A stretch of DNA of 64,000 nt from Obrimoposthia wandeli (taxonomy: Eukaryota): positions 186,001 to 250,000 of the forward strand of contig CDROCS010001737.1 in NCBI GenBank assembly GCA_977020255.1, written 5' to 3'. This document shows, piece by piece, positions 26,051 to 62,688 of this stretch (its first letter is position 1; the number at the start of each line of letters is the position of its first letter). The position numbers were made by a program, and so were the translations under genes. The notes beneath the pieces are model-generated. The model did no database searches, was not told the DNA's origin, and was given only the letters and a program-made list of their open reading frames with translations.

Positions 26051-26074
26051 CTTTATAGTATGGTATAGAAGAAC

Positions 26075-26776
26075 TTGTTATTCAATTACCTATATGGACT
26101 TCGCAGAATTGCATTGTTACGATGGTATTTGTAGAAGAGTCAAATGCTGCTTTAAAAGTCCTTAGCTCAACTTTAAAGTTTTTTGAAAACTAATCGACCG
26201 CTTTAATTGACTCCATTACGATGTATGATCCTGAAGTAAAGAATCGGCAGCAAAATCTTTTCAAATTGTAGAGTTGCTGGAGAGATGGAGATTTTTTCTA
26301 ATTGATTTAATTTTCTCCTTGTTTTCAGCCGACTGATAATATTCTTTAATTTCTTATCTTTAGTTTTGCAGGCGGCGTTCACACATTGCGAAGTAAGAGA
26401 TAAGACCTGGTCGAACCCCTGACATTTGTTGTTGCTGTAAGAGAGCCATCCTGATTTGCAACTTCTGAGTTGGGTCAACTGCGGTTTGGCATGTCCACCT
26501 TGCTTCGACCATAGATTGAATCGGCATACAGTTGACCAATCAATCGGTTATCGAATTCATTCTGTCTGATTTCCCCATTTGTTTATTTGACATAATTATC
26601 TCTGGCTTCGCCAGTGTTTGCCCGCTGAAAAGTCAGATATAATTTCAAGAGTCGATTACCTTAAGAGCCCATGGCAGGACAAAACGTTTTTTTATCGTCT
26701 GATTATGAACACTTCGGACCAATTCAACATTTTCTAAATTTTCATTTAATTTTACTAATTAATATAGAACCCAACA
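26075..26776 (+). mobile_element. LTR-like element with two hairpin modules and a decayed hammerhead
   Basis: Ends ATAGAACCCAACA. Hairpins near 26351-26404 and 26596-26642. CTTAAGA-GCCC..GGAC-AAAAC at 26660-26685. Left end and TSD uncertain (aact/aaca). Confidence 0.5.
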
Positions 26777-26899
26777 AACAGAAGACGTTTCTTTTTAAGT
26801 AGATTTTAATAATTGTGCAATACTTCACTTTGTTATCTAAAGCGTTATTTCATTATGAAGGAATCACCTGCACATTCACTGTTTCCTTGCTTCACATAC

Positions 26900-29165
26900 T
26901 AAGGAAACTAGTTTGTATATTTTGGGGCTGATTTCGATAAAGATTTATTTCATAACTTTACAATTTTATTGATAAATAATCTAGACACTAATTAAAACAT
27001 TTTATGAAACTCATTTATCTATACATATAAATCAATAGCATATATTTCAATATTTTAAAATATCAAGATGCTGTAATAGTAGTATAAAAGCCGTCACTCG
27101 GACATAAACAATTATTGTCCTCAAATAAAAATTATTAATGTTGACAGAATCTCGATTTTATTTCATTTTTGACAACATGATGTTTGCTGACAAAAGTCAT
27201 TTCACAAAGAATACGACAGTCATACATTTGATATATCGCAAGATCTTGCAGTAACTGAACATTAATCTTAAGAGTTTAAATTGCTGTTTCTCATGAAAGA
27301 CAAAATAAACTAAGGAAATGAATAGGATCTAGCCCATCTTCTGCTAAAGTTTTTACACGAAAGAACTCTAACAGATCAGGTAAAAGTTAAATGTCTAACT
27401 TCATATAATAAAGCCTATACTTTAGGAGATTTCGATAATTACTCTCCCAAAATGTACGAGCCTCATTATAGTTTGGAAGACTTACACCTTCGAATTCAGT
27501 TATGGGCGGTATTTCTGTTGTATTTTGTAAATCTGCAAAGGTTTTCGCAAATTTATAAGGAAAAGTCCCTTATAATTAATCGAAGCTGGAAACACTGACT
27601 GTAATTGGCCATAAATGTAAAGAAGCCGTTAAATTAATTTAAATACCCGCTTATAAACTTCAGAGAATCTATAAATCTTAAACTGCAGAATTCAATATAT
27701 GCAGTTATAGGTAAATATTTCTCTGAAATTCAAGGTAAACAAGATAATTTCCATGAAGTTAATGTTCTCAACGCGTATTTAATTATGCAAATCATATTCT
27801 TTGATTTTATGAAATACAATGGGAATGCGTGCTTTTTGAGGGAGTCATCGGCCAAGGTTACAATGGTTGCATGCTGCTCTCAGGTTTCACCCCACATCGT
27901 GATCTCTGACTAACTTAGACCGGCTACTACACAAATAGCAAGTTATATTACAATTAAAATCAACCCAGTCTATGCCAGTCATAATCATTGGTTGGTGAGC
28001 ATTAAGATCATACCATGGTTTTATAATTGTAGTTCCTAATTCCTCTAAACTGCATAACATAAAATCTAAAATACAATTTGAACCGGAAAATTCATGATAC
28101 ATGGTTATATTGAAGCCTAAGAATAATAGTCATGTCGAAGCCGGTAGGCAAACACTCATACTGTTCATGCAAAGCTAAAATTGTTTTAAATTCATCATAC
28201 ACGCTGAATTCGAAGTGTATTCATTTTGCCCAATCCCTGAAATTGATATCTTTACACTTAGGCATGCTATAGAGCGTATTGTCATCAAGATGCAGTGTGT
28301 ATATTGTTAAGTGTTTTTATAAGAGAGTTTGCATCTAAATCCATGCAAACATCTATGACAGCACTTACACCTTGTCCTAACTGGTAAGTGTCAATTATCT
28401 AAATGTAAAAGACTATATAAATTGGGAATTGCAGCACAGTTAAATTTATTATTGTGTTTTAGTAAAATCAAGTTGACCAGAGTTCTTTCAATTTTTTCTC
28501 CTATAAATTACTTCTACAAAAGGATTTTAAAAAATTTATTCTTCTGTTACATTAATTGTGATATAAGTATTATATTTGTATACATTAATAGTCAAGTTAT
28601 TAATGTGTTAAATTCTTGATATCGTAGTTAATTTAACATGGAAATATATTCCATGAAACTGCAATTCATTTAAGAAATTTATATATTTACTGGCACGCTA
28701 TCTATCTGTCCTCAGTAATTACATCCCTTTTGAAGAAGGCTAACACGTTATACAGAAAGCAAAGTCTAACACTGTTTTTACGTTAACAATGGAACGTGAG
28801 AGTTGAAGATATCTAGCTTAAGGAACATATGAAATCCCCGAAAGATAAATCATATCAATGAACTTTGTTAAAACAAAGTTAACATCGTTAATTCTGACTA
28901 GAGTCCATCCACTACTTAACTCGCTATAATTATCAGTTTTTTTATCTAAATTTCTTCCAATCTCAGTTACAAAATTATCATAGAAAACAATAGCTTTATG
29001 TGAATTACTCAAATTTTAAGTTTCTCATTGACATTCTTAAACTACACCGTTGCACAAAACTGAACTTTAGACTGCCCTAATTTTGTCACTTCTGACTTTA
29101 AAAGATTATTGATATTTGAATCTACATCTACGTTTAATAAAATTTTATTTATCATTGGCACTTTA
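26900..29165 (-). mobile_element. Decayed Polinton/adintovirus-type protein-primed DNA polymerase B with endonuclease VII-like motif
   Basis: SGWTLVRI...SGISYVP..IVNVK, CYLC...VRDH..G..RAAC..CNL, IPIVFHKIKEYD and LDPIHF match pPolB family motifs. Many stops and frameshifts. Confidence 0.75.
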
Positions 29166-29166
29166 A

Positions 29167-32100
29167 CTATAACATATTTGTTATTAGGTGATACTCTATA
29201 GTAGTACCGTTTCCCCTACGTTTTTTTAGTGAGGCCTTATTTATAAATTGGCTTCGCTTTTTTCTACCTACCATCGCCGATATACCTCCTCCTAATTGAA
29301 CAAGTCCATTATTTATATTCAAGAGTTCTGTTGAAGTTGTCGGCGGTGCTGCTGATGTAGATGATGTGTCTGACGTGAAAGATGTTGCAGTTGACGCTGT
29401 AGCTGATGTAGATGCTGCAGCTGACGAAGTGGTCGGGGTCACTCTAAGAGCAGATCCGGAAGATGATGATGCTGCCGTTGAAGACACAGCTGTTGAAAGA
29501 AAAAAACAATAATTATATTATATAATTTAAAATAAATTACTTATTAAGCCTGTAAACCTTGATCCTATCGCCACCATCGTTGTGTGGCTGCTCTGGGAGC
29601 CGATTATGCAGCTTCTGAATAATATATATATATGCATTAATTTATATTTATTTTAGAAATTACCTCTAAACTCTGCAAGCATCGACGTAGGTACTCACAC
29701 TGGAGAGAGAATTACAGCTGTAGTAGGGACGTCGTCGAAGAAGTTCCTGATTAAAAAATAAAATAATGAATAATTTATATGAGCAATTCCAATAATTTTT
29801 TAAAATCATAACAAGAATTAACTGTGAAACTTGATGAAACTAAACCAACTGCAGCAAGTGGGGAAGAAAGTCTTCTTCGTCGATTTCATCTAATCACTCT
29901 TTGTCCTCCATCGTTCTGCAGAATGAGCAGACGTAATATTCCTGCCCATAATACATTGTCCGATAGGTTACAAGAAATCTAGAAAATATGAAAATTAATA
30001 AAGTTAACAAATTAAAAGGTTCCTGCCATATTCATATTTTTTAAATCTGGGATTGAAATGAAAAAAAGGGCGAGCTTATATACACTAGAGCTATTATTTA
30101 GGCACACACACTTTTATCTTATTAGCCAAAATTATTAAAAATTTATTTTATTCCTCCAATTATAAGGATTGTTTATATACATGTCAGGTAATAGTAAGAT
30201 AGACTTATACACTTTTTATCTGTGTAATTTTCACCATGATCATGATATGAACAGAAAATATTTCTTGAAATTTTTAATAAATAATCATGTGAAATATTAA
30301 AATTGTTTATTCTCAATTTTGGAAAATAGATTTTTAATATCCTGTACATTTTGCCATTCATTTTATATAAAACATTAAAAAACTCATTTTTCAATATCAA
30401 GATTAGAATTAATTTTATTAATTTCCTTCTTTCCATTTTAACAATAAAACTATTTAGTGAGATATAATTTAATAAATTTATTCTTGTAATCTACAAACTT
30501 AAACGGGATATATACATGAAATATAAAATGTAAAGGATGAAAAACATCACATACATCCATAATATATAATTCTTTTATAATATAATCTCCATCTTTATTA
30601 ATGAAAGCCTCAAAATCAATGAAATATTCTTGCTAAATTATCCAAATATATGGCTTTGTTTATAACGAAAAATATAGTAAAAAAATTTATTAAAAGGTCA
30701 AAATAATTTGCCGTATTCATTTTTTCTCGTTAATCCTATGAATATTAAATTAAAGTATATGAAATGTAATCCTACCTAAATATTTTCAAAGTAAATTGCA
30801 TTTTTTTATCTCCAATCATTTCTGGAGTATCGTTTATTGAAGAAATTAATCTTTTTATTCTTCCATTAAATCTGGAGAAGTTACTATTTCATTTATTCCA
30901 ATTTATTTTATAACCCATCTTATAGAAACTTGCAAATATAAAATTGTTTATACCTAGTAATGTTAAATCAAATATTTAGACAATAACTGAATTTTTTATA
31001 ATAATGTTAACGATAAATAATATTTACAAATATATAATCTTAAAAGAAACATATTTTGAAACGTTCATTTTTAGGAATAGGGCCTTCTTCCAGTTGATGC
31101 TGCAGGACCTTTTTATTTTGACTTGATGTTTATCCTCCATATCCACCTTTTTCGTTCTGCTAATGGCTATTATCCATCTCAAACTTCTTATTCCAATCCA
31201 GGACCCTTCTTTTTCCTGCTAGTCGCCTATATTGTATATCCACTTTCTTGTTCCATTCAGCGGAAACAGTGTCATATAAATTCTGGTTTAAAATTATCTT
31301 TCATAGGTTACCTTTCTTGAAATTTTTCGCGATATTTTTGGCTGTCCGTGCCAAGTGATCCTTCTTTTGTGAGAATTCCCTTTTATAAATAATGAAATGA
31401 TAAATAAAGTTGAACCTATTTATATAAATTTGAATAATTTTAATCCAACTATATCTAAAAAAGGAATTTTTTACTATTTAATTTACAACTAAAGAACACT
31501 TTAATAAGTAAAAAATTACTAAAAAGATATAAAAATACTATATTTTATGAGAAATATATATAAAAGTTATTTTATTAATAACAAGTATTTCTAAGTATTT
31601 AACTTTATAACTTTAGCGAAATATATATAGGCAAAAATGGAAATGCTTTATTTAAAATAAATTGAACTTTAAAAAATCCTTATAATAAAAATTCTAATAT
31701 GAAAAGAAGAATAGATGTTACTTCTTAAAAATTATATGTTTTGAAAACATTTAACGAAGTTATCATCAGGATCATCCTTATCGATATCTCTCTGACTTAG
31801 TAGGCGAGGTTCAAAAGGTACTGGCTGGTTCTTCTTCGGTCCCCGGATTCTTCTTCGGCTACACAACTACTTGATGCTGTGCAGCAAATACTGTCCCAGA
31901 CCGTTTTGGCTGGATTAGCTGCGAATTTTTGAGAGGTGCTGCAACAGATGTATATGTCCTGACAGATGAAGTTAACGTCTGAGATAATGAAGGCATCTTC
32001 TTTTACTGGTCCTTTTCGCGCCCCATCTGCCGTGCCACTGCATCCTGTTGGCAGTTGAAAACAGGATACAAGGCCAGTTGTGGGCGCGAAGTCTCCAGTT

Positions 32101-39179: not shown

Positions 39180-39922
39180 TGTTATATTTGATTATTATTT
39201 CCAACTAATTCATTAGCAATAATTTCTGTTTTCAGTAATAACAGCAACAAAAAATGATCAGCAAAATTATATTTTCAGGAATAACAATAAAATAATGATC
39301 AGTTAAAATTCTGTTTTAATCAGTAAATGCAATAACAATGGTCAGCAATAATTTTGATTTTCTGTAATAGCCGTAATAATTATTGTTAGCAATAATGTAT
39401 GTATTCTGTAATAATTAGGATCAGCAATAATTCCTGTATTCTGTAATAACAGTAATTATTATAAACATCAATAATTTCTGTATCGTTTTCTGTAATAACA
39501 GCAATGATTTCTGTATTCTGTAATAACAGTAATAAATATGATCAGCAATAATTCTTCTTTTCTGTAGCAATTTAAAAAAGTAGTTTTAGAAATTATATCA
39601 AATCTTTCTATGACAAACAATTTTATATTAATTTTTCTATCATAAGTGACATTACATAAATTAGTAGACACACACATAAATCGGCACCACTACACAGATA
39701 GAAGCAGTAAAATAACATGTGTGTATGTAGTAAAATTGGATAGGCAGAAAAATAGATTGAGGATGCAGTCATTTCTTCTGTGTTATCTCCTACTTTGCGG
39801 ACAATTTTCCTACCGCGAAGCACAAGATAAAACCTGAACATCACTGACAAAAATTGCTGTTTGACTGTGGGCACTTCGATAAATTGATTTAAATTTAAGT
39901 TGTAATATTTTAATTCCCAACA
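39180..39922 (+). mobile_element. Nested LTR-like element with degenerate internal tandem repeats
   Basis: tatt|TGTTATA...CCCAACA|tatt. Loose TCTGTAATAACAGCAATAAT repeats at 39220-39560. Confidence 0.75.
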
Positions 39923-40917
39923 TATTCAATTTTTCCAATAAACAGTTCGGAGAAAATATTTTCCAATTTAGATTCAAACTGTCTTTAGGATTCGCATTTT
40001 CCTTTCTAAACTGTTAAATTTAATTTGTCTTTTGGATTTAAATTGTCCTGTCTAAAATATTAAATTCAACTTGTTTGTCCTTACTAAAAAATATCAGATT
40101 CAAATTGTAATTACAAATAAGTCTTCTGGCGATTTTAGTTTTTATGTCAATTGAATTACTGGGGTATTTTATTGTTTTTGGCAGTATATACTGCCGTTTT
40201 ATAAATGGCAGCTGCACTGATAATTCTGCTGAAATTCTGCCCACACCGCGTATCCTTTCCCCAGACTTACACCAGGGACAAAACCACACACAGACAGGGA
40301 AGAACTGTGTATGCTCGCGACAAGAGAGATCGTCGTAAAAAATGTTTGATAATAAACAAATACACACAGACATGCATAAAAACACAAGTGAGTAAGTGAA
40401 TAGTGAGTGTGTGAGTGAATATATGCGTTAGTGTGTGCCATAATTGCTGTGTGTGTGGTGCATGTTCGTGCATTTGAGCACATTTTTGATGATCCTTTGG
40501 ATTGTCGGGGACTGACAACAAAAAAGGAAGTAACAAATGCCAAAGTGCATTTACTAATTTATTTTAATGAATATGTAATTAGGGGTAACTATAGAGACTT
40601 TGTACGTAATTAATAGCGTATTTTGAAATCCAATTTCCATAAAAAATAAAACGACAATATACATCAATTCAAATAGTGTTTTTGTATTAAAGTACAAATA
40701 TATACAAAAGTGTTATTCCTCTATACAAACATTTATTTATGATAAAAATCGGTAGCTTATTTCTATTTATTGATACATTTTGGAATTTCCAACAGATATT
40801 TGAATGTTAGTAATGTCTTCAAATAACAAATTAATGAGCAATCAATGAATCTTTTCCAATTGACAAATTTAATAAACAGTTGGATTAACAATTGTGTCTG
40901 ATGAAAAATAAATTATG

Positions 40918-41930
40918 TGTAGTTTATTCTGCAATGGGGATTATAAGTAAAGCAGAAACACACACAAAAATCAATATCAGGAGACAGCTAGTGAAATCAG
41001 TCACTCGAAGCCAAGTCGACAATCAGGCAGCCAATCCACGCAGGTAGTTCTCGAGACAGGGAAAACGAGAGACTGATGTTGATGTTGTCGCCACGGCCGT
41101 TCCAACAGAGGGATATGGCTGATTGAAAAAGATCCAGTAGTGGACACAGAGGGAGAGAGAGAGATTGTCACTGGCCAAAGATTGGTGGCAGTGGTTGTCC
41201 ATCCCTCTGCCCAAACAGTGCCACACACTGCGCACATAAACACGCAGAAGACTGCCGCCGCCGAGAGAAGAGAGGAAGGCAAGACAGGAAGGTGTGGAAG
41301 GTGTGGAAGGAGGTCTGGAGCTCTGCTTTATGCGTCAAGGCAGATCGGGGTAGGGCGTGGCTCTGTGCTACCTGGACGACTTTGTGCAGGTAAGTGTTTT
41401 TCTTCTTATCTATTTGTCTTTTTAATCTCTGACTTCGCGGGCAAAGCCAGAGATATATCTGCCATCCCCCTGACGAGCCCGGTAGGGCGAAACCGGTTAA
41501 GCCGGTCGGGGACTGACAAAAAGAGATAACCAAAAATGCCAAAGTGCATTTCTTATTAACCCGAATAAACATTTCCCTAATTAAGGAAATTTTTTCCAGT
41601 TATTTCTTAATTAAAGAAATAATTAAAATTTTAAAAATTAATTTTTCTTTTACAAACATGTCCACAACAAAATTATAAAAATTTCACTGAATTAATCCAA
41701 TTAAATCGAATATAAAAAACACATATTTTCAAAATTTTTATATTAAACAATTAAATGAGTCTTGATTAAAGTTTCTTTCTTTCAAATTTTACATCATTGT
41801 AAACATAATCAGATTTAATTTTCGATTTATATTCAAAAAAATTTCAAGTCTAAACTTTGAACAGGCCATATTGATTCAACAATTTTTTATGAAATTGTGT
41901 TTCGTGCTAAGTGTTATAACAATCCCAACA
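40918..41930 (+). mobile_element. Nested LTR-like element carrying an intact hammerhead ribozyme
   Basis: tatg|TGTAG...CCCAACA|tatg. CAG|GTAAGT at 41390, hairpin 41425-41454, hammerhead, AATAAA at 41564. Confidence 0.85.
41465..41512 (+). ncRNA. Type I hammerhead ribozyme, canonical core, predicted cleavage after C41507
   Basis: TCCCC | CTGACGA | GCCC GGTA GGGC | GAAA | CCGG TTAAG CCGG | TC | GGGGA: all core nucleotides and stems I-III present. Confidence 0.93.
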
Positions 41931-42175: not shown

Positions 42176-43148
42176 TGTTGCATAAAGTAATATCATACAT
42201 ACATATTCTAGAAACTGGTTCAAAAATAGAGAATTCATCAGTAAATTTCATCTAAATCAAGCGTATTAGATTACAAGCAGAATAAATAATAAATGGTGAG
42301 GTAAACCAGGAATCTGTTTGATATATTCTGGCGGAAAGATAAATGGTTTATGAGGATATCTTTACACATATCATACATTTTTGTTGTTCAGTTGGAAATA
42401 TAAATGCGTGCAGACAAACACAGAAAAACAAGAACAATATACGAAAAAAGAAACTAGACAACACTACACACAAGCAAAGAATTTTATAGTTTTCAGCAAG
42501 AAAAAGTTCAGTACAGCAGGGAGACAGAGGCGGCGATGTGGATACAGAAATTACAGGGAGATTTACAGAGGGGCCAGTATGTAACTGGTCAATGTAGTTG
42601 CTTCTGAAAAACAATGTTGAACCAAGATGTCACTATAAGAAACTCCATGGAAGGGGAGACTGGAGGCAAGGAAACAGAGGCAGATCTGATCAATAGTTAC
42701 CAAAACAGATACGTTGGTTGCCACTGTCGATGCTGTTAGGAGTAAGATAGCTGGTGTTGTCGCCGAACATTCAATTTATCTGCCTTTCACACATTGGAAC
42801 GGGGACCGATACGGCCAGGACGCCACCGGTATCCCAGAAGGAAAAAATTTACTAGGTGGCTTTTGTGGGAGAAATACTACCATGTTATTCTTTCTGTTTT
42901 TATCTCCGACTTCGTGATTGACAAGTACTTATGAGGTCGGGGAAAAAAATGTGCCGTCTCCTTGAAGATTCCAGCAGAACAAAACTATGTTTTTTTCCTG
43001 TTGGAGACTGATAATGCTTCATTTTCCTGTTGGAGACTGATAATGCTTCATTTTCCTGTTGGAGACTGATAATGCTTCATTTTCCAGACTGTGGAAATTT
43101 CTGTATTTTTAAATTAATTATTTAATTATTAATTGTTAAAACCCAACA
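42176..43148 (+). mobile_element. LTR-like element with decayed hammerhead module
   Basis: Ends CCCAACA. Hairpin 42902-42942, GTCTCC/GGAGAC stem around CTTGAAGA..AAAAC. Left end tentative and TSD unresolved. Confidence 0.5.
42993..43086. repeat. 3 x 31-bp tandem repeat
   Basis: TTTTCCTGTTGGAGACTGATAATGCTTCATT-type unit repeated. It duplicates the 3' arm of the decayed hammerhead stem I. Confidence 0.9.
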
Positions 43149-43711: not shown

Positions 43712-43750
43712 TATTATATATATATATATAATTATATATATATATATTTA
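43712..43750. repeat. Interrupted (TA)n microsatellite
   Basis: Direct reading. Confidence 0.85.
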
Positions 43751-44992: not shown

Positions 44993-46439
44993 CTGGATAA
45001 TGGGAAGAAATTATAAGAGAAAAATGCATAGCATTTAATTAAAATATGTAAGTCATTATTTAAAGCTGGAGTTACATTTAAAATAAAAATCTATGTGAAA
45101 ATTTTGAAGATAAAACTGATTATAAATAATTAATTGTATTTCAATAGTTTTGTCAATGTGATGGATTATTTGTTTTATTGTCAGACATTGGTAACAACAT
45201 ATTATTAAATGAAATATAATTGTTCAGAGATGTGAACATGTATATTCGATTGTTCACGTCTTGTAATCATAATACGAGCTTCTGATTAAATGCTTGCCTC
45301 TTATTATTTATTAATAAAATATTGGTAGCTTTTTGAAGTTATAAATTTAACTTTTTCAAAGAATTTAACTATAAATGAAGCACCACATATCCATTTTATC
45401 ATTAAATTTGGCAGGTGCTTCCGGTTTTCTTTCGTACGGAAATTTACTAAGTTTATTATAAAATGTTCCATTGCTCTTCAAAACTTTCTCACGATATAGC
45501 CAAGCTTTGATGTAAAACGATTTCTTGTTTTTTTTGCAATTAGTAAAGCGATTTTAAATGATGAATTCAATAATTTGACATGAAATTGGAAGTGAATTGA
45601 AATTAGCTTCTTTCTTGCTCTTGCTGTTCGTTGAAAAAACTCAAAGTTTATTTTGATATATTGAATGTTTTGTTTTAAAATTTCATAACATTTTACCTGA
45701 ACTCATGGAGTTGTTTGCAAAGACTATCTTGCAAAATGAAAAAGTGGTATTTCCTGGTTATCTATTATTCTTGAAATGAAATCATGTTGCAAGTAGTCAG
45801 AATTATAGTTGTGGGTTTTTTCATTTATGTTTTTTTTCAATTTGCATCAGCATTGATTGAATGTGATATTTTTATTTGCCTTTCCAAGAAATATTAACTC
45901 ATGTGTTGGGGTTTCTATATGAAACTGTGTTCTAATATAGATCCTCTGAATGAAGGGCCCCAACGTGAGTTCTATAGAAGCAGGACTTGTAGATGTTTGT
46001 GGCCTACTTAATGTTATGCTTGCCTGTCTCAATTTTTATCTAAAGGTTTGTTGTCTCTAAATTTGAAGGGTCTATAACAACGCTTTCTAGTTGTAGGAAA
46101 TCGTTTTTTACTAAGCACACTAAATTAACACGTCTAAATACGTTCTAAAAACTACAATACAATTCCTAAAACTTTTACAAAGTCTCTGCACAAGTGGGGA
46201 TGAACCACGTATCGATTTTATTTTAGGGTTGATTTGTCACTAGAGTCTTTACTCTAGTAAATGGGGACTGATTTTAGAGAGCTGGTTGCTCTGAACTTAT
46301 GGTAGGTTAAGTTGATGAAAGTATAGCAATACAAGTGGGATAATCTATCAAAATCTCTTTAACAATTGTTACAACTTGTATCTTAAAAACTTCGTTCAAA
46401 CTTTTCCAAACTTATTTCAAAAACTTCTTTAACGCTTAC

Positions 46440-46880
46440 TTTAATAACAAAATTCAAGTTTCTCAATGCAAAATTTTAACTATAACAAAATTCAAGTTTA
46501 TCAACACAAAACTTTCAATAACAAAATTTACGTTTATCAATATAAAACTTTCAATAACAAAATTCACGTTTATCAATACACAATTTTAACTTATAACAAA
46601 ATTCAAGTTTATCAATACAAAACTTTCAATAACAAATTTTAAGGTTATCAATACAAAATTTTAACTTATAACAATTCAAGTTTATCAATGCAAAACTTTC
46701 AATAACAAAATTCAAGTTTATTAATACAAAACTTTCAATAACAAAATTCAAGTTTATCAATACACAATTTTAACTTATAACAAATTCAAGTTTATCAATG
46801 CAAAACTTTCAATAACAAAATTCAAGTTTATCAATACAAAACTTTCAATAACAAAATTCAACTTTATCAATGCAAAATTT
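46440..46880. repeat. Minisatellite, 36-40-bp units
   Basis: AATAACAAAATTCAAGTTTATCAATACAAAACTTTC repeated about 11-12 times with variants. Confidence 0.9.
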
Positions 46881-48149
46881 TCACTTTTATACCTTTGTTT
46901 CAGTCCTTTCGCAAGTTGGTTGCCGTGCTCTACGGTCGTTCGGTTCCGGTATCGCAATCCTAGACTTGATCCGCAAATATGTTGGTTGCCGTGTCCAACG
47001 GTTCCTCGTTTTCAGTTCTGAAATTGTCTTGAGATATAATAATTCAATTATTATTCTCACTTTTCCGTCTCGTTTGCGAAATCCCAGTAAAATCCTTGGC
47101 CACAGAATATATTCTCTGAATCTGTTGAGATCGAATCGGTTTCCGTCTTTTTATGTTTTTGGTTCCGTAATCCACAATTTGCTGTCCTTTTATATGGCTG
47201 TATGTTTTCTGTATCTGGAATTTCAGCTGCTAAATTCCGACTGCGGATTCGATTGTCTTTGTTGCGATTAACGAGTTGCGATTAATGACTCGGAATTGAT
47301 CAGCTGCTAACTTGTCTGCTGTTTGGCTCCCACCTACGAATTGGTCTGATAGCGCTAATTCTATAATGGAGAAAAATCAATTTAGCTAAATGCTAATATT
47401 TCTTACCTTGGCTCTTTTCAATTAGTCTTCTTTCCTTAAGTTCTTGATTTGTTCGTATTTTCTTTTTTGGGGCCTTTTGCTTTAATTTTAACCTCTATAT
47501 ATATCGCACTCTAAACATGACCTTTCAAAGTCCTAATATTTTCTACAAAACTATATTTAATTTCAACTTTTATTTATTTAAATTTAATTTAATCTATATT
47601 TAACCTTGCTTTCAAGGATTTTTATTTCGGTATAAATTCAATTAATTATTTAATATTGTTGGGGTTTCTATATGAAACTTATATAGATCCTCTTGAATGT
47701 GGAGGGCCCCAACGTGAGTTCTGTAGAAGCAGGTCTTAAAGTTGGTCGTGGCCTACTTAATGTTATGGTTGCCTGTCTCAAATACTTATCTGAAGGTGTT
47801 TGTTTTGATGTCTCTTAATCTGAAGGGTTTAAAACAATGCTTTCTAATGTAGGAAATCGTTTATTGTTAACACACTAAACTAAAACACCAATACGTTTAC
47901 GTACGTATTTCTAAAATATTACAGTAAAAATTCCTAAGACTTCTGTAAGTCTCTACACAAGTGGGGATGAACCACGTATCGATTTTACGTTAAGGTCGGT
48001 TAGTTTATTGGAGTCTTTACTCTAACTTGTGGATAAACTCAGTGTACAGATTTTGAAGAGCTGGTTGCTCTAATATAAGGAATGCGTTTAGAGCTGGATG
48101 TCTCAAGTGGTTTAATTTTAAGGGTTTATTTCTCAATGATGATTTTAGA

Positions 48150-48730
48150 TAATTTTCACAAAAAACTAGACTTTCTCTTTCTCAATTTACGATTCAAATA
48201 ATTTCGCAAAAATTTACGATTCAAATAATTTCACAAAAATTTACGATTCAATTAATTTCACAAACTTTACGACTCAATTAATTTCACAAAATTTACGGTT
48301 CAAATAATTTTCACAAAACTAGTTTTCTTTTTCTCAATTTACGATTCTATAATTTCACAAAAATTTACGATTCAAATAATTTCACAAAAATTTACGATTC
48401 AATTAATTTCACAAACTTTACGATTCAATTAATTTCACAAAATGTACGACTCAATAATTTCACAAAATTTATGGTTCAATTAATTTTCACAAAACTAATT
48501 TTCTTTTTCTCAAATTACGATTCTATAATTTCACAAAAATTTACAATTCAAATAATTTCACAAAAATTGACGATTCAATTAATTTCACAAACTTTACGAT
48601 TCAATTAATTTCACAAAATGTACGACTCAATAATTTCACCAAAATTTACGACTCAAATAATTTCACACAATTTACGACTCAATTAATTTCACAAAATTTA
48701 CGATTCAATTAATTTTCACAAAACTAAATT
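48150..48730. repeat. Minisatellite, about 26-27-bp units with a higher-order period
   Basis: AATTTCACAAAAATTTACGATTCAAAT repeats, punctuated by AAAACTA..TTTCT every 150-230 bp. Confidence 0.9.
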
Positions 48731-48749
48731 TCTTACACTAGCTTTGGAT

Positions 48750-48965
48750 CCGTCCGTTGTCTGATTAGAGATGCTGCTCACGCTGTATCCTAGTTCGAGC
48801 TATCTGATTAGAGAATTGTTCGCGCTTTGTGCTGATTCTTCTCCGAGTATAAACTAGCTTGATATCCGTCCGTTGGCTGATTAGAGATGCTGCTCACGCT
48901 GTATACTAGTTTGAGCTATCTGATTAGAGACTGTTCGCGCTTTGTGCTGATTCTTCTCCGAGTAT
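48750..48965. repeat. 2 x about 115-bp tandem duplication
   Basis: ATCCGTCCGTTG..TGATTAGAGATGCTGCTCACGCTG...TTCTCCGAGTAT occurs twice. Confidence 0.85.
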
Positions 48966-49924
48966 TCTTCTCTTTTTGGGGATTGATTTTAATCTAGACT
49001 TATATAGTCTTCCTTCTTGCCAATCACTTTGTTAGTGGTGTGGCTAATTAATATTCCTGGCGGTCCTACACAGTAATTAGTTAATCGACTTAATTACTTC
49101 GTCGCTTACCTCACAAAAGACAGCTGTTGGGACTCGAGACGTGGGAATCGATTTTTCCTTTCGCGTTTGTTCAGTCCTACAAGTAAATAATTAATTTACT
49201 TATTTAATTTGTTGTCGCTCACCTCCGGGAAAACAGCACGTGGAATTGGTGACGTGTTTTGTTCTTCTAATTTTCCTTTTTCAACAAACTATTTTTTCTT
49301 TGGTAATCTATTAACTTTTGCACTTTTGTTTTTTTAAATTAACATTATATATACTCACGCATTTCACACGACCTTCGTGGTCTTCTAATATTTATTTACC
49401 TATTTAACTAACAATTTTAATTCTGATATTAATTTATTTAATTCTAACCTTGTTCTCAAGGATTTTCATTTTAGTATAAATTCAACTTAATTATTTAATT
49501 TTAACAAAACCTAATCCTAACAATATTATTCAAAACACATGAAACACAGTTATACTTGGTATATTTAATTCGTTCGATTGTATTGTAATGGCGTTAGTAT
49601 TGACATTACTTGTACCTATTTTTGTTGTCTTTCACGCTGGTGTACCATCATGAAACTTTCCGAACTAAGTTTGTACCACATTTGGATTGACAATGAATTA
49701 CCCTTCTCCATTTGATATAATTTCTAAGTTTCCCTGACGTTCATACCTTTATTCCAATAATGACAAATAATTACTTTGATAACTGCTTCCACTCAAGACC
49801 AAAAACTATTACAATGCATACAAAATAACATATTTGGTGTTAGTTACAAATTTGATACTTATTTTCTATTTGTGTTTTCATTAACTCAAAAAAAATAACT
49901 CCTTTATTATTTGTTTGATACCTA

Positions 49925-53779: not shown

Positions 53780-54540
53780 AATGATATCAATAAGATAAAA
53801 TACAAATATTTTAAACAATTAATAATATGTAATGATTTCAATGAGATATTTGTTGTTTTTTAGAAGCTAGTTTTTCTATTCCAGGCTTGTAATTAGTAAC
53901 CTTTAATCGTACAAAAGCTGCTGATTCAATCAATGAGAAGTGCGTTTGCTAATAATTTCATTGAATTTAATGTGTTCGGTAAGGATATCCCTTTTCGTAA
54001 TAAGATGCTTTCAATTTTATCGTCGATTGATTCGCCATCGCTGTTATTTACGGAAACAATTTAATTAAATTTTATCATTAAATCTTCAAATTCTGCCTTC
54101 CAAATGTAATTATTTTTCAATTTAATCATTTCAATTTCTAAGTCACTCTAAAACATCTAAATTCAGCTCTTCAAAACTTATTTTATGTGGTGAAATAATA
54201 AACGGCAAAGTTGATTCCAATTTTTTAACTGATTAAATCGTTCTACAAATGCATCTTTGATATCACCAATAATTGATAAATACTTATTTAAAGCATTATT
54301 AACGGCATTTTCTTGTTAATTTAAAATATTGCAACGTATCATAGCTGGAAAATATTTTAATGATTTTTTATTTGTATAATTTGAAAAAACAATTAGTTTT
54401 AATATGAACGATTTTAAACTTACATACATTGTCAACAAAATTTGGCCAAGACCTTGAAGAATTTTGTTCATTTGATTGAAATGCTGAGTGATATTACATA
54501 AGAAAATCAAATTATTTAACCACTCCATATTTGTGAATTT
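53780..54540 (-). mobile_element. Decayed hAT (GTF2IRD2/SPIN-like) transposase 3' half
   Basis: EWLNNLIFLCNITQHFNQMNKILQG...SFILKL.VF...LKYFP matches WL.DLAFL.DIT.HLN.LN..LQG. Confidence 0.7.
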
Positions 54541-54583
54541 GGGATAGCATAATATAATATAGAGAATGAATTTTCGAAAATAT

Positions 54584-56532
54584 TGTTGGGGTTTCTATAT
54601 GAAACTGTCTCTAATATAGATCCTCTGAATGGAGGGCCTCAACGTGAGTTCTATAGAAGCAGGACTTGTAGATGTTTGTGGCCTACTTAATGTTATGCTT
54701 GCCTGTCTCAATTTTTATCTGAAGGTTTGTTGTCTCTAAATTTGAAGGGTCTATAACAACGCTTTCTAGTTGTAGGAAATCGTTTTTTACTAAGCACACT
54801 AAATTAACACGTCTAAATACGTTCTAAAAACTACAATACAATTCCTAAAACTTTTACAAAGTCTCTGCACAAGTGGGGATGAACCACGTATCGATTTTAT
54901 TTTAGGGTTGGTTGGTCACTAGAGTCTTTACTCTAAAATGTGGAAAGGTTAAAGTAGTAGGTTTTTGGAGCGCTGGTTGCTCTAAAATATGGGACGTGGG
55001 ACAATTATATGAAAAATATGGGCAAGTTAATTCAGAATGCGGTACAATTATAGGAAAATTATGTGGTAAATTAATTTAGAACGCGGGGCAATGATAGGAA
55101 AATGGGGCAATTATTAATTCAAAATGCTAGACAATTATAGGAAAATTATGTGGTAAATTAATTTGGGACGCGGGACAATGATAGGAAAATGGGGAAATTA
55201 TTAATTCAAAATGCTAGACAATTATAGGAAAATTATGTGGTAAATTAATTTGGAACGCGGGACAATGATAGGAAAATGGGGAAATTATTAATTCAAAATG
55301 CTAGACAATTATGTGGTAAATTATGTGGTAAATTAATTTAGAACGTGGGGCAATGATAGGAAAATGGGGAAATTATTAATTCAAAATGCTAGACAATTAT
55401 AGGAAAATTATGTGGTAAATTAATTTAGAATGCAAGGTAATGATAGGAAAAATGGGGAAATTATATATTCTCCTTTTCTGCTCACAATATTAGCAGTATC
55501 TTCACGAACGTTTTTACTTTTTACTCACAATACTTCAACGAACGTTTTTACTTTTTACTCACAATACTTCAACGAACGTTTCTACTTTTTACTCACAATA
55601 CTTTCACGTACTCACAATATTTTCGCGCTTGGCTCTTACCTCCTCCGAATAACCTGGCGTCCGGTATCGATTGGCCTCCTCAGATGTCGGTCGAATCTTC
55701 TGCTCGGTACTCTTTGATGTGCTGTGGTCGCACTGTTCGGTTCTCGTTCTAGATGACAATTCTGACGGTATCTCCTCGTTTTTAGTGGTGCTGTCTGGAA
55801 TAATCGAGTAAATTCGCTTTCAATTATTTAGTCTTACCTTCTTCTTTTTCGCTTTTATTTCCAATTGGCTTCGGTGCTCGGATTTTATCGACGAGTCTTA
55901 TTTCTAATTTCTGGCGTGAAAATGACTTCTTCGATAGGCACTGATTTCTTCTTGGCTTTGTCAACAAAGTGTCGCTCGGATTTTATAACGAGTCTTATTT
56001 CTAATTTCTGCCGTGAAAATGACTGCAAAACAAATCAAGTAGTATTTTGGTTTTATATAGTTTACCTTCTTCGATAGGTACTGATTGCTTCTCGGCTTTG
56101 TCAACAAAGTGTCGCTCCTCTTTCGGCTCTGTCAACAAAGTGTCGCTCTTTTTCGGCTCTGTCGACAAGCGTTATTTACTTACACTTAAATAAGTGTACT
56201 TACCCTGGTATCTGAGATCCGGCTGGCGATTCGTAGCGTCCTCTGGTGACGTCGTTGAGTGGCCTAATGGATTACTTCCGCTGCTATCTTGATTTATTCC
56301 TTGATTACTCTTCTTTCCTAATTTGATTTCTAGTTTTCGTAAATAACTTATTCTTTTTTGGGGCCTTTTGCTTTAATTTTAATATCTATATATACTGCAC
56401 ACGCTTACACATGACCTTCGTGGTCCTAATATTTTCCCACTAATTTTATCTTAATTACCTTGCTTTCAAGGATTTTTATTTTAGTATAAAATGATTAATT
56501 ATTTTAATTTTAGTCAAAACCTAATCCTAACA
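54584..56532 (-). mobile_element. LTR-like element, group A
   Basis: atat|TGTTGGGG...CCTAACA|atat. The first ~350 bp are nearly identical to the 45904 copy. Confidence 0.9.
55020..55460. repeat. Minisatellite, 87-bp unit, about 5 copies
   Basis: GAAAATTATGTGGTAAATTAATTT...ATGCTAGACAATTATAG, period measured 55141 to 55228. Confidence 0.92.
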
Positions 56533-56536
56533 ATAT

Positions 56537-57071
56537 GATAAATAAAGAAATGGTTCATAATTTTCAACAATACACTAACAAGGTTCTATGTTGGATCTTA
56601 TTACTTCCCCAATAAATTTTCAGCAATGATTCGAAATTATATCCATGTCTCTTTTTCAATTTTGCAATAATTTGGCTTGACATTTACAATCATTTAGAAT
56701 CTTCAGGATATCAGAGCCATTAAAAACTCCTTCTTTTACTTTGTCTAAAAAAGTTTAGAGAATTTGTATATTATGTAAGCAAATGCTTTTCCATTGGTGG
56801 TCAGTGTTTTTGCAAATTTCTTAATGAAATCTAATTTCCGTCAGGTTAGATCTTATGAGCTACAATTTTTGTTTGTAATAACTGCTTTGAAGGAATATCT
56901 AAAAAACACAAAAAGTCATGGTTACTTTGTGTAGCCTGATTGTTATCCAATACAATCCTGTATAAAGAAAAACTTTTAAAATTAGTACATATTGGTGCGA
57001 GATCTTCATAACTTCAATTGTCCTGATTGTATTTTATCAAACAACTTCTTCATGTTCTTTCATTATAACAT
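56537..57071 (-). mobile_element. Decayed Chapaev3-like transposase, cut by LTR-like insertions on both sides
   Basis: QSGYTK, KKFAKTL..NGKAFAY, DKVKEGVFNGSDILKILND, AENLLGK/NKDP. Confidence 0.6.
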
Positions 57072-58260
57072 TGTTGGGGTTTCTAATCGAAACTGCTATT
57101 AGATCCTCGTGTGGAGGCCCCCAACGCGAGTTATGTAGCGATAGGGCTTACAGTTGGATGTGGCATACCTATTATTATTCTTCTTTATTCGTGTCTCAAG
57201 TCTGAAGGTTCTATGTCTATTGTTTTGTGGTATTTTCAAGAAGTTGTGTTTAGGAAGGGACCCTAAAACTAGTGGTGTAATGTAAGCTTAGGGCCATTAG
57301 AGTTTATTTCGAAAAGTGGTCTGGTAAAACCGAGACCTAAATATATGAACAGAGTCGAAGCCAAACGACGCTAACGATGCTCCCCTGAATGTACCAGAGC
57401 TTGGAACACTGCTACGTGATTAACTCGCGGCTAGCCTATATGTTAGTTGGTCTGTCTAGTTGGAACAGCGCTTCTCACTAATCAAATTTCGTAGGGTTAT
57501 CTAAATTACTACTTATATTTTATCAAACGGAATTACACAGAGACCAAAATGGAGACTAGTAGAACGGCGAGTTAATTATTAACACCCCGAGTAAGTAGGT
57601 TGACACCCTAGTAGATGTGGTTAAATCACGAATATAACTTTATTTTACAAAATTTGTTTATTGTCTTTCTTCACAATACTAAAAACTAATTCGTTTACAA
57701 TTACTTTAATCCAAAATCGTTTACAATTATTATAATCCACAATGTTTATAATTACAACAATTCAAAATTCGTGGCCCAGTCAGAAACACACGAACAGTCG
57801 CATAGCACTTTCCGTGTGTGCATGCGCGATCCCAGTATTCTTCTCATCACTTTGTGCTGTGTTGAAAAATCAAATTGTCGCTACAGCTGTGGAAGGCAGG
57901 AAGATACCTCGGCCAGAGAAGCAAAAATATGCCATATTGATTCTGCATAATCTGTGTAGTCCATAAAGGGAGTTAAACAATTTCCTTCCTAAAATTTATT
58001 TGAATTAGGCACTTGATCTGTGATCGAAACTCCGTTTTTATCCGGTTGTTTTTAAATCACTTTATATCTGGCTTAGCGGACGACCACCCACTGTAAAGTC
58101 AGAGATAAGAACAGACTGTGTGCCTGATGATACTGTCAGGGCTACACGTTCAAACGATCGTCGCAGTCTGAACAATTCCACCCGACTGAGAACACTTCGA
58201 TTTTAATAATTATTACTTAATTAATTTTTCCAAAAATTCTTAATTAATAATTCCCAACCC
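57072..58260. mobile_element. LTR-like or composite element with a group A terminus and a plus-strand hammerhead-like module
   Basis: TGTTGGGGTTTC start. Hairpin 58063-58108 and CTGATGA...CAAACGATCGTC at 58124-58162. Right end not resolved. Confidence 0.55.
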
Positions 58261-58959
58261 TAAACTTGTATCAATAATTGAAAATAATTTGGCGGAAATA
58301 TATTGCAACTAATAAAAATATAATCGAAAATTGTTAGAAGGAGAACACAATTCCAAACATTGCGAAGTTGTCCACCTTAGTTTTGTCAATATCTCAGGGG
58401 GTGTTATAAGGGAGAAAACAAAACTTCACTGCATCTCCAGCGATCAAGTTAGGAGCAGGACGAAAGAGAGTAGAGAAAAGAAAAACGGCAGGTAGTAAAC
58501 CGTTGTTGTCGCTGCCAAATCCTCTATTCAGGAATATTAGTGGTCTGAGAGGCAGCGACAGTCAAGAGAGAACGACCGGCATAAACCTCGGGGATCTGCA
58601 ACAGACAGTAAGTAATTTCACAGGAAGAGAGGGAGGAAGAAAATGGTGACCGTTTGTAGAGTACAGTAGTTTCTGTTGCTGCAGTAAGGTCGAAGGCAAT
58701 CCCAGTTCAGTGGTAGAAGAGTCGCCATCACAGCCGAGGGAGACAGTTTGTGAGAATAGAAGGAACTAACCAGTACACCAAATCAAATTTAATATCACAG
58801 CTGTAAAAATGAATTTCAACAAATGTGCATAAATCTGTTACAAAATGGCTGCAAATAAATACATACGATTATGTTTATGATTTTAAGAATATTTTGGAAT
58901 AATTTTATGAAAATTTTCAAGTCAAATCAAAAACAAAATTAACGAAGTATTTTATTAAT

Positions 58960-59890
58960 TAATCGCCAAGCACACCTATTTCTCTGGAATGTTTTTCAAT
59001 AAACTTTCTTATATGCTTGTAGAAAGCTTGAAGATCTTTGTAATCTTCTGGCTTCAGCTCTTCTTCCACAATCTGAGCCATGTTATTCATTCGATCTTCT
59101 GTTTTTTTCTTCCATTATAACACGTTCATTCATTTTCTTTCTTACTTGTCCTTTTAATTTTGAAAACACTGACTCAACCGGGTTCAGAAAAGGTCTATAA
59201 GGCGTAAGTGTTTAACCTTATGATTATCATTCATGACAACGACCCATTGTGTGTGGAGGTATTATCATGCATTAAAATGCGCTTCTGTTCGGCATTTAGT
59301 TTTGAGCACAAAACCGCGATGAACTCCTGATATATATCCTTATTAAATGAGCCTTTTATGATTTTGAAGGCCACTGGTTCAATTCTTTTTATAGCCAACT
59401 GATGTTGGGCCTCCGCAATTGAAGAGATCAGTGTAGAAACGCTCCCCTCTTCTAGACCATACTATTAGGCTCTTCATCCACATGTTGTAGGAACATTAGT
59501 ATATGTAGACGCAGTCCTTAGTAGACTATTCTTCGGACAAATATTTAGAAACATAGATCCTTTGCAAACCTCTTGTGCTCTCAAAGCATTTATGCTAACT
59601 AACCATTTTTTCCGAGCAGAAAATGGGACACAGTCATTGGCGTACAGCGGATTGATTGCGTCTCAGGGAAAAATCGCCATATCTCAAAAGGACATGAACG
59701 AATTTTTATCTAAATCAATCATTGAAAAGTTTCTGCTGCCTCTGGGATTTTGGCTTTGAGCCGCCTCTTGGACCTTTTGTAATCTTATTTGTTTGTCTAT
59801 ATTTGAATATGATAAATCTTGCGCCGTGTTTATTCATTTTTAATTGTCTTGATAAAAAGAAAATGATACTCTCCATATATGCGTTATGCT
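58960..59890 (-). mobile_element. Decayed IS630/Tc1 (DDE_3-like) transposase
   Basis: TPYRPFLNPVESVFSK near 59200 matches (L)PPYSPFLNPIE.VFSK. Multiple stops and frameshifts. Confidence 0.7.
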
Positions 59891-59896
59891 GGCATT

Positions 59897-60520
59897 TGTT
59901 TCCTTAATTATAAATTTTCCTAATTGATTTATTAATTAAACCATGCACTTGGGCATTTTCTGTTTTGGTCAATCTTCGACCGGTTTAGCCGGTTGTGCCT
60001 TATCAGGCTCTTCATGGAGATGGCTTATCTCTAACTTTGCGTTTTGAAAACGCCTGCAAAGCCAGATATAAGAAAGTAGGGTTTTCTCCCTCAACCATGG
60101 GCTGACAATCTACGCCGGCACATGGCATTAAGGCACACATACAGGCTGCAAAATGTCACACACAGCAATCATTTACACACTCTCACTACTTACTTAAATA
60201 TTCACTCACTAATCACCTCTACTCACGCATTGTTTTCGTGTGTAAGAATGTGGTGGTTACAATTTTCCCATCTGCCCAGAGTGCAAGCAGGCGGCGAGAA
60301 TTCTCGGCTGCACATGTGTGTGCAGAGTCAAGAATTGCAATCGGCAACATCATCATCTTGCAATTTCCCACCTGTCCAAATTCTCTTATTCTCTCAGGCT
60401 TGACAGTTGATAGTCACATCGGTCACACTGCCTTCTTCGGCAGCAACAACGACAAATGTCAACCATCTGATCGGTTGCTATAAATAGTAACACACTTTTG
60501 AGATTTCCCTACAACAAAAA
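59897..60520 (-). mobile_element. Inverted copy of the hammerhead-bearing family (decayed core)
   Basis: Minus strand reads hairpin, TCTCC-ATGAAGA-GCCT GATA AGGC-ACAA-CCGG CTAAA CCGG-TC-GAAGA, then AAAATGCCCAAGTGCAT. Shares a CTGCAC..GTGCAG hairpin with 61884-61915. Confidence 0.75.
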
Positions 60521-60976
60521 CGAATTACTGTCTATAAAAATCTGGTCGTCAATATTTAAAATACAGTTGATATTTTTTCTGTTTTGAATCCAAATAAAAC
60601 AGTGACAAAAAATGGATTGTTTTTCTTTTAATAAATATTTTACGAAATAAAAATTTCATCCATTTTACGAAATACAAATATTATCAATTCTTTGAGATAA
60701 TTTGCAAATAAACATATATATGAAAAACATTGAATTACGCAATAAATACCCTAAAACATACGTTTTTCGTTTTCTGTTCTATTTATGCATATAATATTAT
60801 ATGAAAATATATTACCTTAATTACTTTTCCATGTTCATAGATTCATCCGAAACGTCAAATAACGCGTAAATAAGTGCATTTTCTTTGTTTATATTCATTC
60901 TGTTTCTATCTTATATATTAAAATCACACACAAAAAGTGTTCTTCCCATGCATGTTAGTGTGTGTATTTGTCCATA

Positions 60977-62688
60977 TATTTATGGAATTGATTTTTATTT
61001 ATGGTATTCATTTATGTTGAATTGTAAAGTTTTATTAGTGTGTGTTTATCGTTAATTTTATTATAGGTTATGGAATTCATTCTGCCTATTGTATTTGACC
61101 GAGTGTAGCAGCACTGGTTGTCGCCAGAGCATGGACGCGGGTAGAGAGAGTAGGAGAGTGCGTCTGCAGATTGGACTGCACCGAGATGAACCGACAGGGA
61201 GAGATTATCGCTGTATTGTCGAGGGACAGAACGAGGGCGGTAGTAGATAGTGATAGAAAAAGATGGTCGCTGTCTGGTTTTGTCGCGGCCGCCACAGAGA
61301 AGTAGCGGTCCACTAGATTTGGTTATCCTGGGCGCAACTTGCTAAGGATAAAATATAATTTGGTCCTCAGTGGTCCACTCGATCTGCAATCGACTCTCAC
61401 TCGCCATCCTTCAATCCCGCCACTTGTTATATCTGGCTTCGCGGGTGTTCGATCACCGCGAAGACAAATAACATTCGCCAACCGCAGGAAAAAATAGCCT
61501 AAATAACTGGAGGTCGCGGTTAAACTATCTTATCCACCTGATTGTGGGAATTTGTTATTGTAATAATTAATAATCAATTTCTTCAATAGGAAAATATTTT
61601 ATTTCAGAGATTTAATAATCACAAATTTGGATACAACGATAATTGTAATTCAATCAATAATCGTCTGATTCTGGGCAATTGAGAATAATTTTATAATTCA
61701 ATCAATAATTGTCTGATTCTGGGCAATTGAGAATAATTCTGCAAGCAAAAATTTCAGATCGTTTATGAAAAAATAATAATTTTATTTTTCTGGAACCGCA
61801 ATCCAAAAACACGCCCTAAATGTTGCTTTTCTACAGACAGCGGGGAAAATCCATAATTGGGCAGAGAGGAAACTGGTATTTCCCGGCTCTGCACACACGC
61901 ACATGTGCAGCCGGGAAATTTCACCGTCTGTATATATTCTGGGCAAGCGGAAAATGCCAAATTAAATATACACATATATTAGTAATTTTTGATTCGCGAA
62001 TTTTTACTTTCCCAAATAAATGTATAACAAAACTGCAATAATTCACTCTTGATTTATTGTCGAAAACAAATTGTGGATAAATTGTAAGATTGTTTTTGTG
62101 TGCTTATTTTCAAAATCCACTTGTATATATTTCCACGGAGAGTGTGACTGGACAACTCCGCTGCATCAATCGAGCGGATAGAAAGGCAGGCCCACATCAG
62201 TCGGCCTCGTCCATGACTGGCGAATTCCGCAGTTATCACGATGGCGACACTGCGGCACACCGCCGTTGCCACCGGTAGGAGAAACGGTCAGAGAGACAAG
62301 AGCTGGGGATTAGTCTGCAAACCACCGAAATGTCAAACTGTCAGGAACAATCTGCTGCAGAAGTTGGTCCGGCATAGACTGGTTGAGAGTGGGTGGTGGT
62401 TCTGTATATCCTGGGCATCTTCCTCCATGTAAGTGTTTTTATTTTCATATCTCTGACTTCGCGGGAATTTCATCCACTGCGAAACCAGAGATAAGTTTGC
62501 CGTCCCCCTGACGAGCCTGGCAGGGCGAAGCCGGTCGGGACTGAACTAATAAAACTGATTATAAAATGCCAAAGTGCATTTCACTTACCCTAAAACATTT
62601 CCCTAATTAAGGAAATTTTCTCTCGTTTTTTCTTAATTAAGAAATATTTTAAATTGTATTTTTATTTTTTTTAATTGTAATCCTAACA
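60977..62688 (+). mobile_element. LTR-like (possibly composite) element with two hairpin/hammerhead modules
   Basis: Ends AATCCTAACA|cata. Tentative start cata|TATT (TG decayed). Modules at 61427-61521 and 62429-62582. Confidence 0.55.
62502..62541 (+). ncRNA. Minimal type I hammerhead ribozyme (GAAG instead of GAAA, palindromic CCGG stem III)
   Basis: GTCCCC | CTGACGA | GCCT GGCA GGGC | GAAG | CCGG | TC | GGGAC. Confidence 0.75.

Follow-up and report, generated by a model that had tools for sequence, protein, structure and literature searches.

Hammerhead modules of the window and their host element

We analysed a stretch of 64,000 nt from Obrimoposthia wandeli (GenBank assembly GCA_977020255.1, contig CDROCS010001737.1, positions 186,001 to 250,000 of the forward strand; hereafter the window, whose own numbering is used below unless a locus is named), searching it for modules built around a hammerhead ribozyme; the assembly is AT-rich and comprises 1.35 Gb. 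The modules are parts of solo long terminal repeats (LTRs) of a very large and recently mobile Ty3/gypsy retrotransposon clade with the gene order gag-env-pol, and the ribozyme lies antisense to the genes of the element. A preliminary description of the window had listed a hammerhead or its ruin at about eight places. Related sequence does occur at all eight, the stem variants quoted are all found in the sequence, and a covariance model built from 28 copies, all outside the window, recovers six of the places; yet only one ribozyme is intact, and two further remnants had been overlooked. The intact copy, an extended type I hammerhead at 41460-41516 (plus strand), passes a strict descriptor scan, has a predicted three-way junction fold and scores 72 bits in the covariance scan. 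It comprises stem I (41464-41469/41508-41513), CUGACGA (41470-41476), stem II (41477-41488), GAAA and stem III (41492-41506), with the cut predicted between 41507 and 41508. Around it lies a solo LTR (40918-41930) whose sense strand is the minus strand (TG at 41930), with a TATG target duplication on both sides. A subfamily-specific stretch 5′ of the ribozyme (41387-41455, plus strand) holds a splice-donor-like CAG/GTAAGT (41387-41395) and a palindromic hairpin (41424-41455), and on the 3′ side lies a small palindrome (41534-41551) that is seen in four of the eight copies.

The other copies are damaged to various degrees. A second solo LTR (61977-62688, minus strand; 712 bp, CATA target duplication) carries on its plus strand a hairpin (62447-62493) and a hammerhead (62498-62544) with stem III partly deleted. 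Hairpins with decayed hammerheads lie on the plus strand at 42901-43148 (core at 42962; a 29-nt unit is triplicated, and the LTR start, TG on the minus strand, is at 43148) and at 58063-58259 (core at 58124; probable LTR start near 58259), and hairpins with hammerhead ruins, also on the plus strand, at 26596-26776 (core at 26660; LTR start, TG on the minus strand, at 26776) and at 61427-61523 (core lost, stem I arms left at 61480-61485 and 61516-61521). The sole minus-strand copy (59943-60070) consists of hairpin, decayed hammerhead (core at 60015-60009) and small palindrome, and a 3′ remnant at 40504-40552 (plus) keeps the cleavage site, the 3′ arm of stem I and the small palindrome. The two overlooked remnants are a hairpin at 26355-26403 (plus) and a module at 39784-39922 (plus; LTR start at 39922) that retains its hairpin, the ribozyme being deleted. 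Matches to the covariance model fall at 41458-41533 (72 bits), 62496-62561, 59952-60027 (minus), 42950-43028, 58112-58188 and, weakly, 26648-26725 (E 0.068); the model misses the places at 61427 and 40504, both of which are tied to the others by sequence similarity. Among the eight places the strict descriptor scan is passed by 41470 alone, the cores being broken in the rest except at 62447, where part of stem III is gone.

The copy at 62447 has at least 40 matches at 88-92% elsewhere in the genome, among 1,803 candidates. The unit common to these relatives measures about 715-760 bp; its ends are sharp and flanked by target duplications of 4 bp, and in 6 of 30 loci the similarity continues beyond one unit end into a common interior that encodes gag, a Monjiviricetes-type fusion glycoprotein, protease, reverse transcriptase (RT), RNase H as well as integrase (Pfam). 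The env (PF24664, glycoprotein B (gB)/chuvirus-type; E 6e-92) is in one frame between gag and protease, giving the order gag-env-pol; protease, RT, RNase H and integrase follow one another in that order (Pfam), and an additional domain lies 3′ of the integrase, besides a DEDDh exonuclease. A second subfamily provides six full-length elements of 12-14 kb with the DEDDh exonuclease frame at the 3′ end, and a seventh full-length element has the same ribozyme type as window position 41470; the LTR pairs of all seven are 98.6-99.7% identical. LTRs start with TG and are flanked by 4-bp target duplications, one subfamily ending in TA instead of CA. About 12-17 nt of the primer binding site are complementary to host tRNA-Trp (0-2 mismatches), and the polypurine tract is conserved yet not purine-only, being a weak CCCCATAGG or CCGGAGG ahead of AT/TG; in the most active subfamily it is weak and C-rich (L205-L244, before the 3′ LTR). 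Thus, the sharp ends, the target duplications, the common gag-env-pol interior and the full-length elements together identify the modules as parts of solo LTRs of a Ty3/gypsy clade, and a Penelope or retrozyme origin of these copies is ruled out by the LTR ends, the target duplications and gag-env-pol. A subfamily with a retrozyme-like stem II turned out to consist of LTRs too, 6 of 30 copies showing the same junction to the interior.

A genome search with RT returned 150 scored copies at 97-100% identity, among 24,996 candidates, and the nearest database relatives are at best 56-58% identical (41-42% for env relatives elsewhere). Solo LTRs are apparently far commoner than full elements among the fetched loci; for the old subfamilies, no paired LTR was present in 12 single-stretch flanks, and their full elements were not found. 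Within the window the clade is also represented by a broken env-protease-RT remnant (23340-26237, minus strand), a diverged member with about 72% nucleotide identity to young copies. Between L263-L264 and the other subfamily pol is 89% identical and the exonuclease only 36%, so that the 3′ end and the LTR were exchanged as a block. A deleted element (L033:2764-9639) has gag and env without pol and sits in another high-copy repeat; empty-site joints around it are seen in public contigs from four runs of one sample, contigs that are uninformative on strand or ends.

Strand, occurrence and structure of the ribozyme

The gag, env, pol and exonuclease frames run antiparallel to the ribozyme in all six full-length elements of the second subfamily and in the seventh, with the window's ribozyme type. 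All seven have the ribozyme within the LTR at about 140-225 nt from its start, on the strand opposite to genes and primer site and with one orientation in both LTRs; the primer site comes after the LTR end far from the ribozyme. In integrated copies (L321-L325) that far end is still joined to a tRNA-Trp 3′ half including its CCA, and at L324:1477-1700 the tRNA half has a U5 stub on one side and, on the other, the TG with which an LTR bearing the ribozyme starts, resembling a junction with an unremoved primer. Frame direction, primer site and tRNA joints at the far end thus place the ribozyme near the start of U3, the unique 3′ region, and in antisense. A TATA-like sense motif occurs 380-860 nt downstream in 14 of 32 LTRs (counted without control); relative to it, the ribozyme is on the divergent strand. 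The minus-strand env-protease-RT remnant of the window adjoins two modules of the plus strand (26355 and 26596), in agreement with antisense polarity. Nine of the ten modules between 26355 and 62688 share one strand (binomial p 0.02), and the env-pol remnant and a hAT frame are oriented accordingly. Rfam scans of the window and eight loci revealed no further ribozyme on the sense strand.

How regularly the ribozyme occurs was gauged in elements picked by their RT: 40 of the 150 RT matches were taken in list order, five being skipped (e.g. three already analysed wholly or partly and one near a contig end), and the stretch expected to hold the 3′ LTR was read for each, the ribozyme playing no part in the choice. 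The antisense ribozyme is present in the 3′ LTR of 32 of the 40, at 138-223 nt from the LTR start in the 31 measured. The type I core found at window position 41470 (CUGANGA, GAAA and an NUH site) is exact in 29 of these young copies and altered in three, and young copies thus keep intact cores, as would be expected if the preliminary description were right on this point. Four other elements show no LTR and four an apparent LTR start without ribozyme; among the latter, one is a false start, another combines a decayed copy with an intact 5′-LTR copy, and in two neither LTR contains the ribozyme, which is thus present in 33 of the 35 elements having an LTR. A sense-strand core about 2 kb beyond the LTR start in one of the 40 is probably a nested insertion. 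Since the two elements without ribozyme were still copied and integrated, it is not needed for a single round; moreover, being on the strand opposite to genomic RNA, it is unable to cut that RNA. The earlier proposal that self-cleavage is part of the replication cycle is therefore not supported.

Six point or small lesions could be compared with the partner LTR: five do not occur there and hence arose after insertion; the sixth is common to both LTRs and ambiguous, since the upstream LTR of that element is preceded by interior sequence, and in one of nine partner-LTR checks the partner was not found. Many core losses had been described as G-to-A or similar post-insertion changes, yet C>T equals or exceeds G>A in all four families (44/22, 59/51, 13/8 and 104/76), which is ordinary GC-to-AT drift; neither G-to-A nor strong CpG decay is seen. 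Genome-wide, the pattern of core plus stem II has 7,309 matches (3608+3701) against 0+0 for the reversed pattern; a few hundred of them were examined, and some may belong to other elements. Strict hammerheads number 90 in 1.03 Mb of fetched loci, which are motif-enriched by way of fetching, against none in 3.1 Mb of shuffles.

Selection on hammerhead RNA structure across divergent subfamilies, proposed in the preliminary description, is supported by the comparison of copies. Twenty-eight diverse copies were aligned without structure, after 9 of 37 representatives had been dropped as chance matches or truncated copies; in this alignment 85.7% of the cells are paired, 10 of 15 pairs are compensatory, and none of 500 shuffles reaches the score. 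When the structure is slid along the alignment as a control, only 28-45% pair, and this control is the better guide because a core was required in the choice of rows and related sequences can beat shuffles even when unstructured. The unpaired core is invariant (CUGA-GA, GAAA, UH), position 7 alone varying among C, U and A, and stem I has G-U pairs that are family-wide (55 and 9 copies) and valid solely on the ribozyme strand. The pattern is kept across lineages whose exonucleases are 36% identical. Conservation immediately 5′ of the ribozyme drops from 0.94 to 0.72 and 0.28 in 30 young LTRs. Rfam Hammerhead_1 gives 33.9 and 30.1 bits in two of eight loci scanned, just below its cut-off of 34. 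The loop motifs UGA/UAA-GCC (loop I) and GGCA (loop II) also occur in unrelated phage type II hammerheads, and in metagenome and viral contigs the ribozyme pattern was found at 11 GC-rich, phage-like loci, type II hammerheads only; searches of viral contigs with two proteins gave no matches. In two lineages, the 3′ arm of stem I has a potential, covarying pairing partner 10-15 nt 3′ of the ribozyme (58/60 and 10/13 copies); this segment is seen at L032:8865-8890, in L281 and at window 58160-58190, and is absent from the lineage of window position 41470.

Known systems and possible functions

Both components of this arrangement are known; their combination and orientation appear new. In gene order and env the element resembles errantivirus-like Ty3/gypsy elements of GAG-ENV-POL order with an env of herpes simplex virus/gB type (PMC13524379), which share the chuvirus-like fusion glycoprotein (PF24664), LTRs, a tRNA primer site and many near-identical copies; the present element adds a post-integrase domain, a DEDDh exonuclease and an antisense hammerhead, and the main text of that report has no occurrence of ribozyme, hammerhead, antisense or exonuclease. 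Bdelloid Vesta and Juno LTR retrotransposons also have an extra 3′ exonuclease frame (DEDDy, open reading frame 3 (ORF3)), but there it takes the place of env, whereas here both are present, and ribozymes are unmentioned (0 occurrences) in the accessible text (PMC5408684). Plant LTR retrozymes resemble our element in having a hammerhead in each LTR, a 4-bp target duplication and Ty3/gypsy-type ends, yet they are described as non-coding and non-autonomous, with a type III ribozyme on the RNA that bears the primer site, while ours is coding, 12-14 kb long, type I and antisense (PMC4918200; PMC7761336). Animal non-LTR retrozymes and Penelope-like pseudo-LTR hammerheads share the type I fold, the loop-loop motifs and thousands of copies, but form tandem repeats of 150-450 bp that lack LTRs, a primer site and the 4-bp duplication, in contrast to the dispersed LTRs with all three found here (PMC7229834; bioRxiv 10.64898/2026.07.22.740005). 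The hepatitis delta virus (HDV)-like and hammerhead ribozymes of R2, L1Tc, RTE and short interspersed elements (SINEs) are likewise self-cleaving ribozymes inside retroelements; in the accessible text of PMC6765202, however, all cases free the element's own RNA from a co-transcript, no autonomous LTR element is among them and the word antisense is absent. In the literature searched, with few subscription papers and no supplements or Repbase entries, neither a hammerhead within an LTR of any coding LTR retrotransposon nor a retroelement ribozyme in antisense came to light. Retroelement ribozymes are described as processors of the element's own RNA; one that is retained antisense in the LTRs of a coding LTR retrotransposon, across many LTR subfamilies, needs another function. 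It also follows that animal hammerhead counts are not all assignable to retrozymes or Penelope-like elements.

The LTR context, polarity and conservation of the ribozyme are direct observations; as to its role, we consider on balance that the LTR hammerhead likely acts as a one-way cutter of antisense RNA, directed at divergent or read-through transcripts at the LTR edge and limiting silencing. RNA polymerase would run backwards through the LTR, either from the LTR's own promoter or within a surrounding host transcript, and the antisense RNA would fold into the hammerhead and cut itself about 100-190 nt before leaving the LTR. A cut in the 3′ LTR would detach the capped leading portion of the transcript from the stretch that is antisense to exonuclease, pol, env and gag, favouring decay or termination and leaving less double-stranded RNA or precursor of Piwi-interacting RNA (piRNA); in a 5′ LTR or solo LTR, it would keep divergent transcripts out of host DNA. 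The benefit would accrue to the lineage over many rounds, rather than through a step of reverse transcription. In Drosophila, piRNA silencing of Tirant was started by antisense insertions in host transcripts (PMC13226689). It is conceivable, if more tentatively put, that the antisense ribozyme serves as a counter-defence of an animal retrovirus-like element, by which backward transcripts, including host transcripts that are precursors of piRNA or small interfering RNA (siRNA), are cut before the coding region is reached. If antisense transcripts are indeed cut, this would be a protein-free answer to the antisense trap that gives animals piRNA immunity, and the thousands of natural intact and broken copies in one genome make the idea testable by sequencing alone.

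Several points weigh against the cutting of antisense RNA. Antisense transcription and cleavage are both predictions from DNA, and the antisense ribozyme is observed in one genome only. Hammerhead products bear a 5′-OH, on which 5′-3′ exonucleases act only after phosphorylation, and the cut RNA could still enter small-RNA pathways. Counted by distinct stem types, G-U and A-C combinations are nearly equal (46 vs 39), conservation in the young family is about equal for the ribozyme and for the AT-rich 90 nt at the LTR start (0.90-0.97), and the pairing of loop I with loop II covaries weakly (64% paired against 57% after shuffling, a score reached by 29 of 500 shuffles). The sense strand also has the more stable fold (-30.0 against -24.4 kcal/mol for the ribozyme strand, with z of -2.5 against -1.2), and part of the stem conservation could therefore serve sense RNA.

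This last point bears on the view that the hammerhead is a passenger that came with the backward insertion of a retrozyme or Penelope end in an ancestral LTR, what is now conserved being a sense-strand RNA or DNA structure. Besides the better fold of the sense strand, the commonest forms of the 5′ hairpin pair better on that strand, two of its variants being reverse complements, and animal type I hammerheads usually reside in retrozymes or Penelope-like elements (PMC7229834); an origin by capture is plausible. Yet a sense structure explains neither the invariant CUGA-GA, GAAA and UH with a free position 7 nor the family-wide G-U pairs valid only in antisense, and the pattern persists across lineages with such divergent exonucleases, which makes this view improbable. 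Somewhat better placed, though still unlikely, is a ribozyme that makes a product, either by defining the 3′ end of a short antisense LTR RNA running from promoter to cut, or by releasing from both LTRs a unit-length, possibly circular RNA that would regulate the element. In plant retrozymes, circles arise from ribozymes that have the same direction in both LTRs, as they do here (PMC4918200), a donor-like site stands 5′ of the ribozyme in some subfamilies, and the covarying downstream segment could shape a product end; but most young copies lack donor and hairpin, the sequence 5′ of the ribozyme is a variable mosaic, and the full-length elements have no conserved long antisense frame.

Self-cleavage as a required step of replication, for instance making a primer or donor for reverse transcription, could draw on the presence of the ribozyme in nearly all elements with a visible LTR and on the weak polypurine tract, which implies atypical plus-strand priming. 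The strand is nonetheless wrong for cutting genomic RNA or for plus-strand priming, the DNA documents normal priming by tRNA-Trp, and the two integrated elements without ribozyme in both LTRs largely refute such a step, which we regard as very improbable. Nor are stem I arms mixed between families among the 40 commonest stem types of 166 copies; the cut site is therefore not a swap point, and no sign of it as a recombination point was seen. We give least credit, indeed hardly any, to a ribozyme that mainly protects the host by limiting LTR-driven transcripts into adjacent DNA, so that insertions are tolerated and silencing of the element is not the target: it would act equally in the abundant solo LTRs, and the family did grow to thousands of copies, but an intact ribozyme lying antisense in an intron would cut host pre-mRNA, which is a cost.

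Sequence around the ribozyme and elsewhere in the window

The preliminary description did not extend to the Ty3/gypsy host or to the antisense orientation, which is the unusual part, and treated donor, hairpin, hammerhead and small hairpin as one fixed RNA module. That constancy does not hold. In the window, a GTAAGT donor precedes two of the eight copies and the small hairpin follows four, and among the 32 young ribozyme LTRs there is one clear donor (with a weak GGTAAT in four more) and two 5′ hairpins; donor and 5′ hairpin, scarce in young LTRs and subfamily-specific, are thus rejected as parts of a single RNA module. The inner pairs of the 5′ hairpin are GAC/ACC (24), GAC/GCC (17), GGC/GTC (5) and GAC/ATC (2), and given two variants that are reverse complements and commonest forms that pair better on the sense strand, the hairpin behaves as a strand-neutral palindrome. 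The sequence 5′ of the ribozyme is highly variable; U3 between ribozyme and TATA-like motif is a patchwork differing among elements with RT 97-100% identical, and LTR length spreads from about 400 to more than 1,400 bp (both L193-L244). A GC-rich palindrome at window 60262-60327 and 61887-61955 is a recurring module in the U3 patchwork of many LTRs. A 15-kb satellite (L161-L162; G000:C1019:40800-56200) with units of 156 and 174 bp is built from a decayed module, and the core is broken in one module-derived tandem array.

Outside the modules, the last exons of a spatacsin-like gene lie at 16052-21427 (plus strand), with a U11 small nuclear RNA gene at 20598-20730 (minus) on the opposite strand, apparently in its last intron. 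A location of the modules in a host intron was considered and rejected, as this gene appears to end near 21427, ahead of all of them; a homolog search for confirming that end found nothing. A second TG...CA repeat family, with inner tandem arrays, no hammerhead and many genome copies, occupies 45904-49523, 54584-56531 and 57072-57450. A hAT transposase frame (PF05699) lies at 62923-64000 (minus), and a transposase fragment (PF13843) at 17682-17945 (minus).

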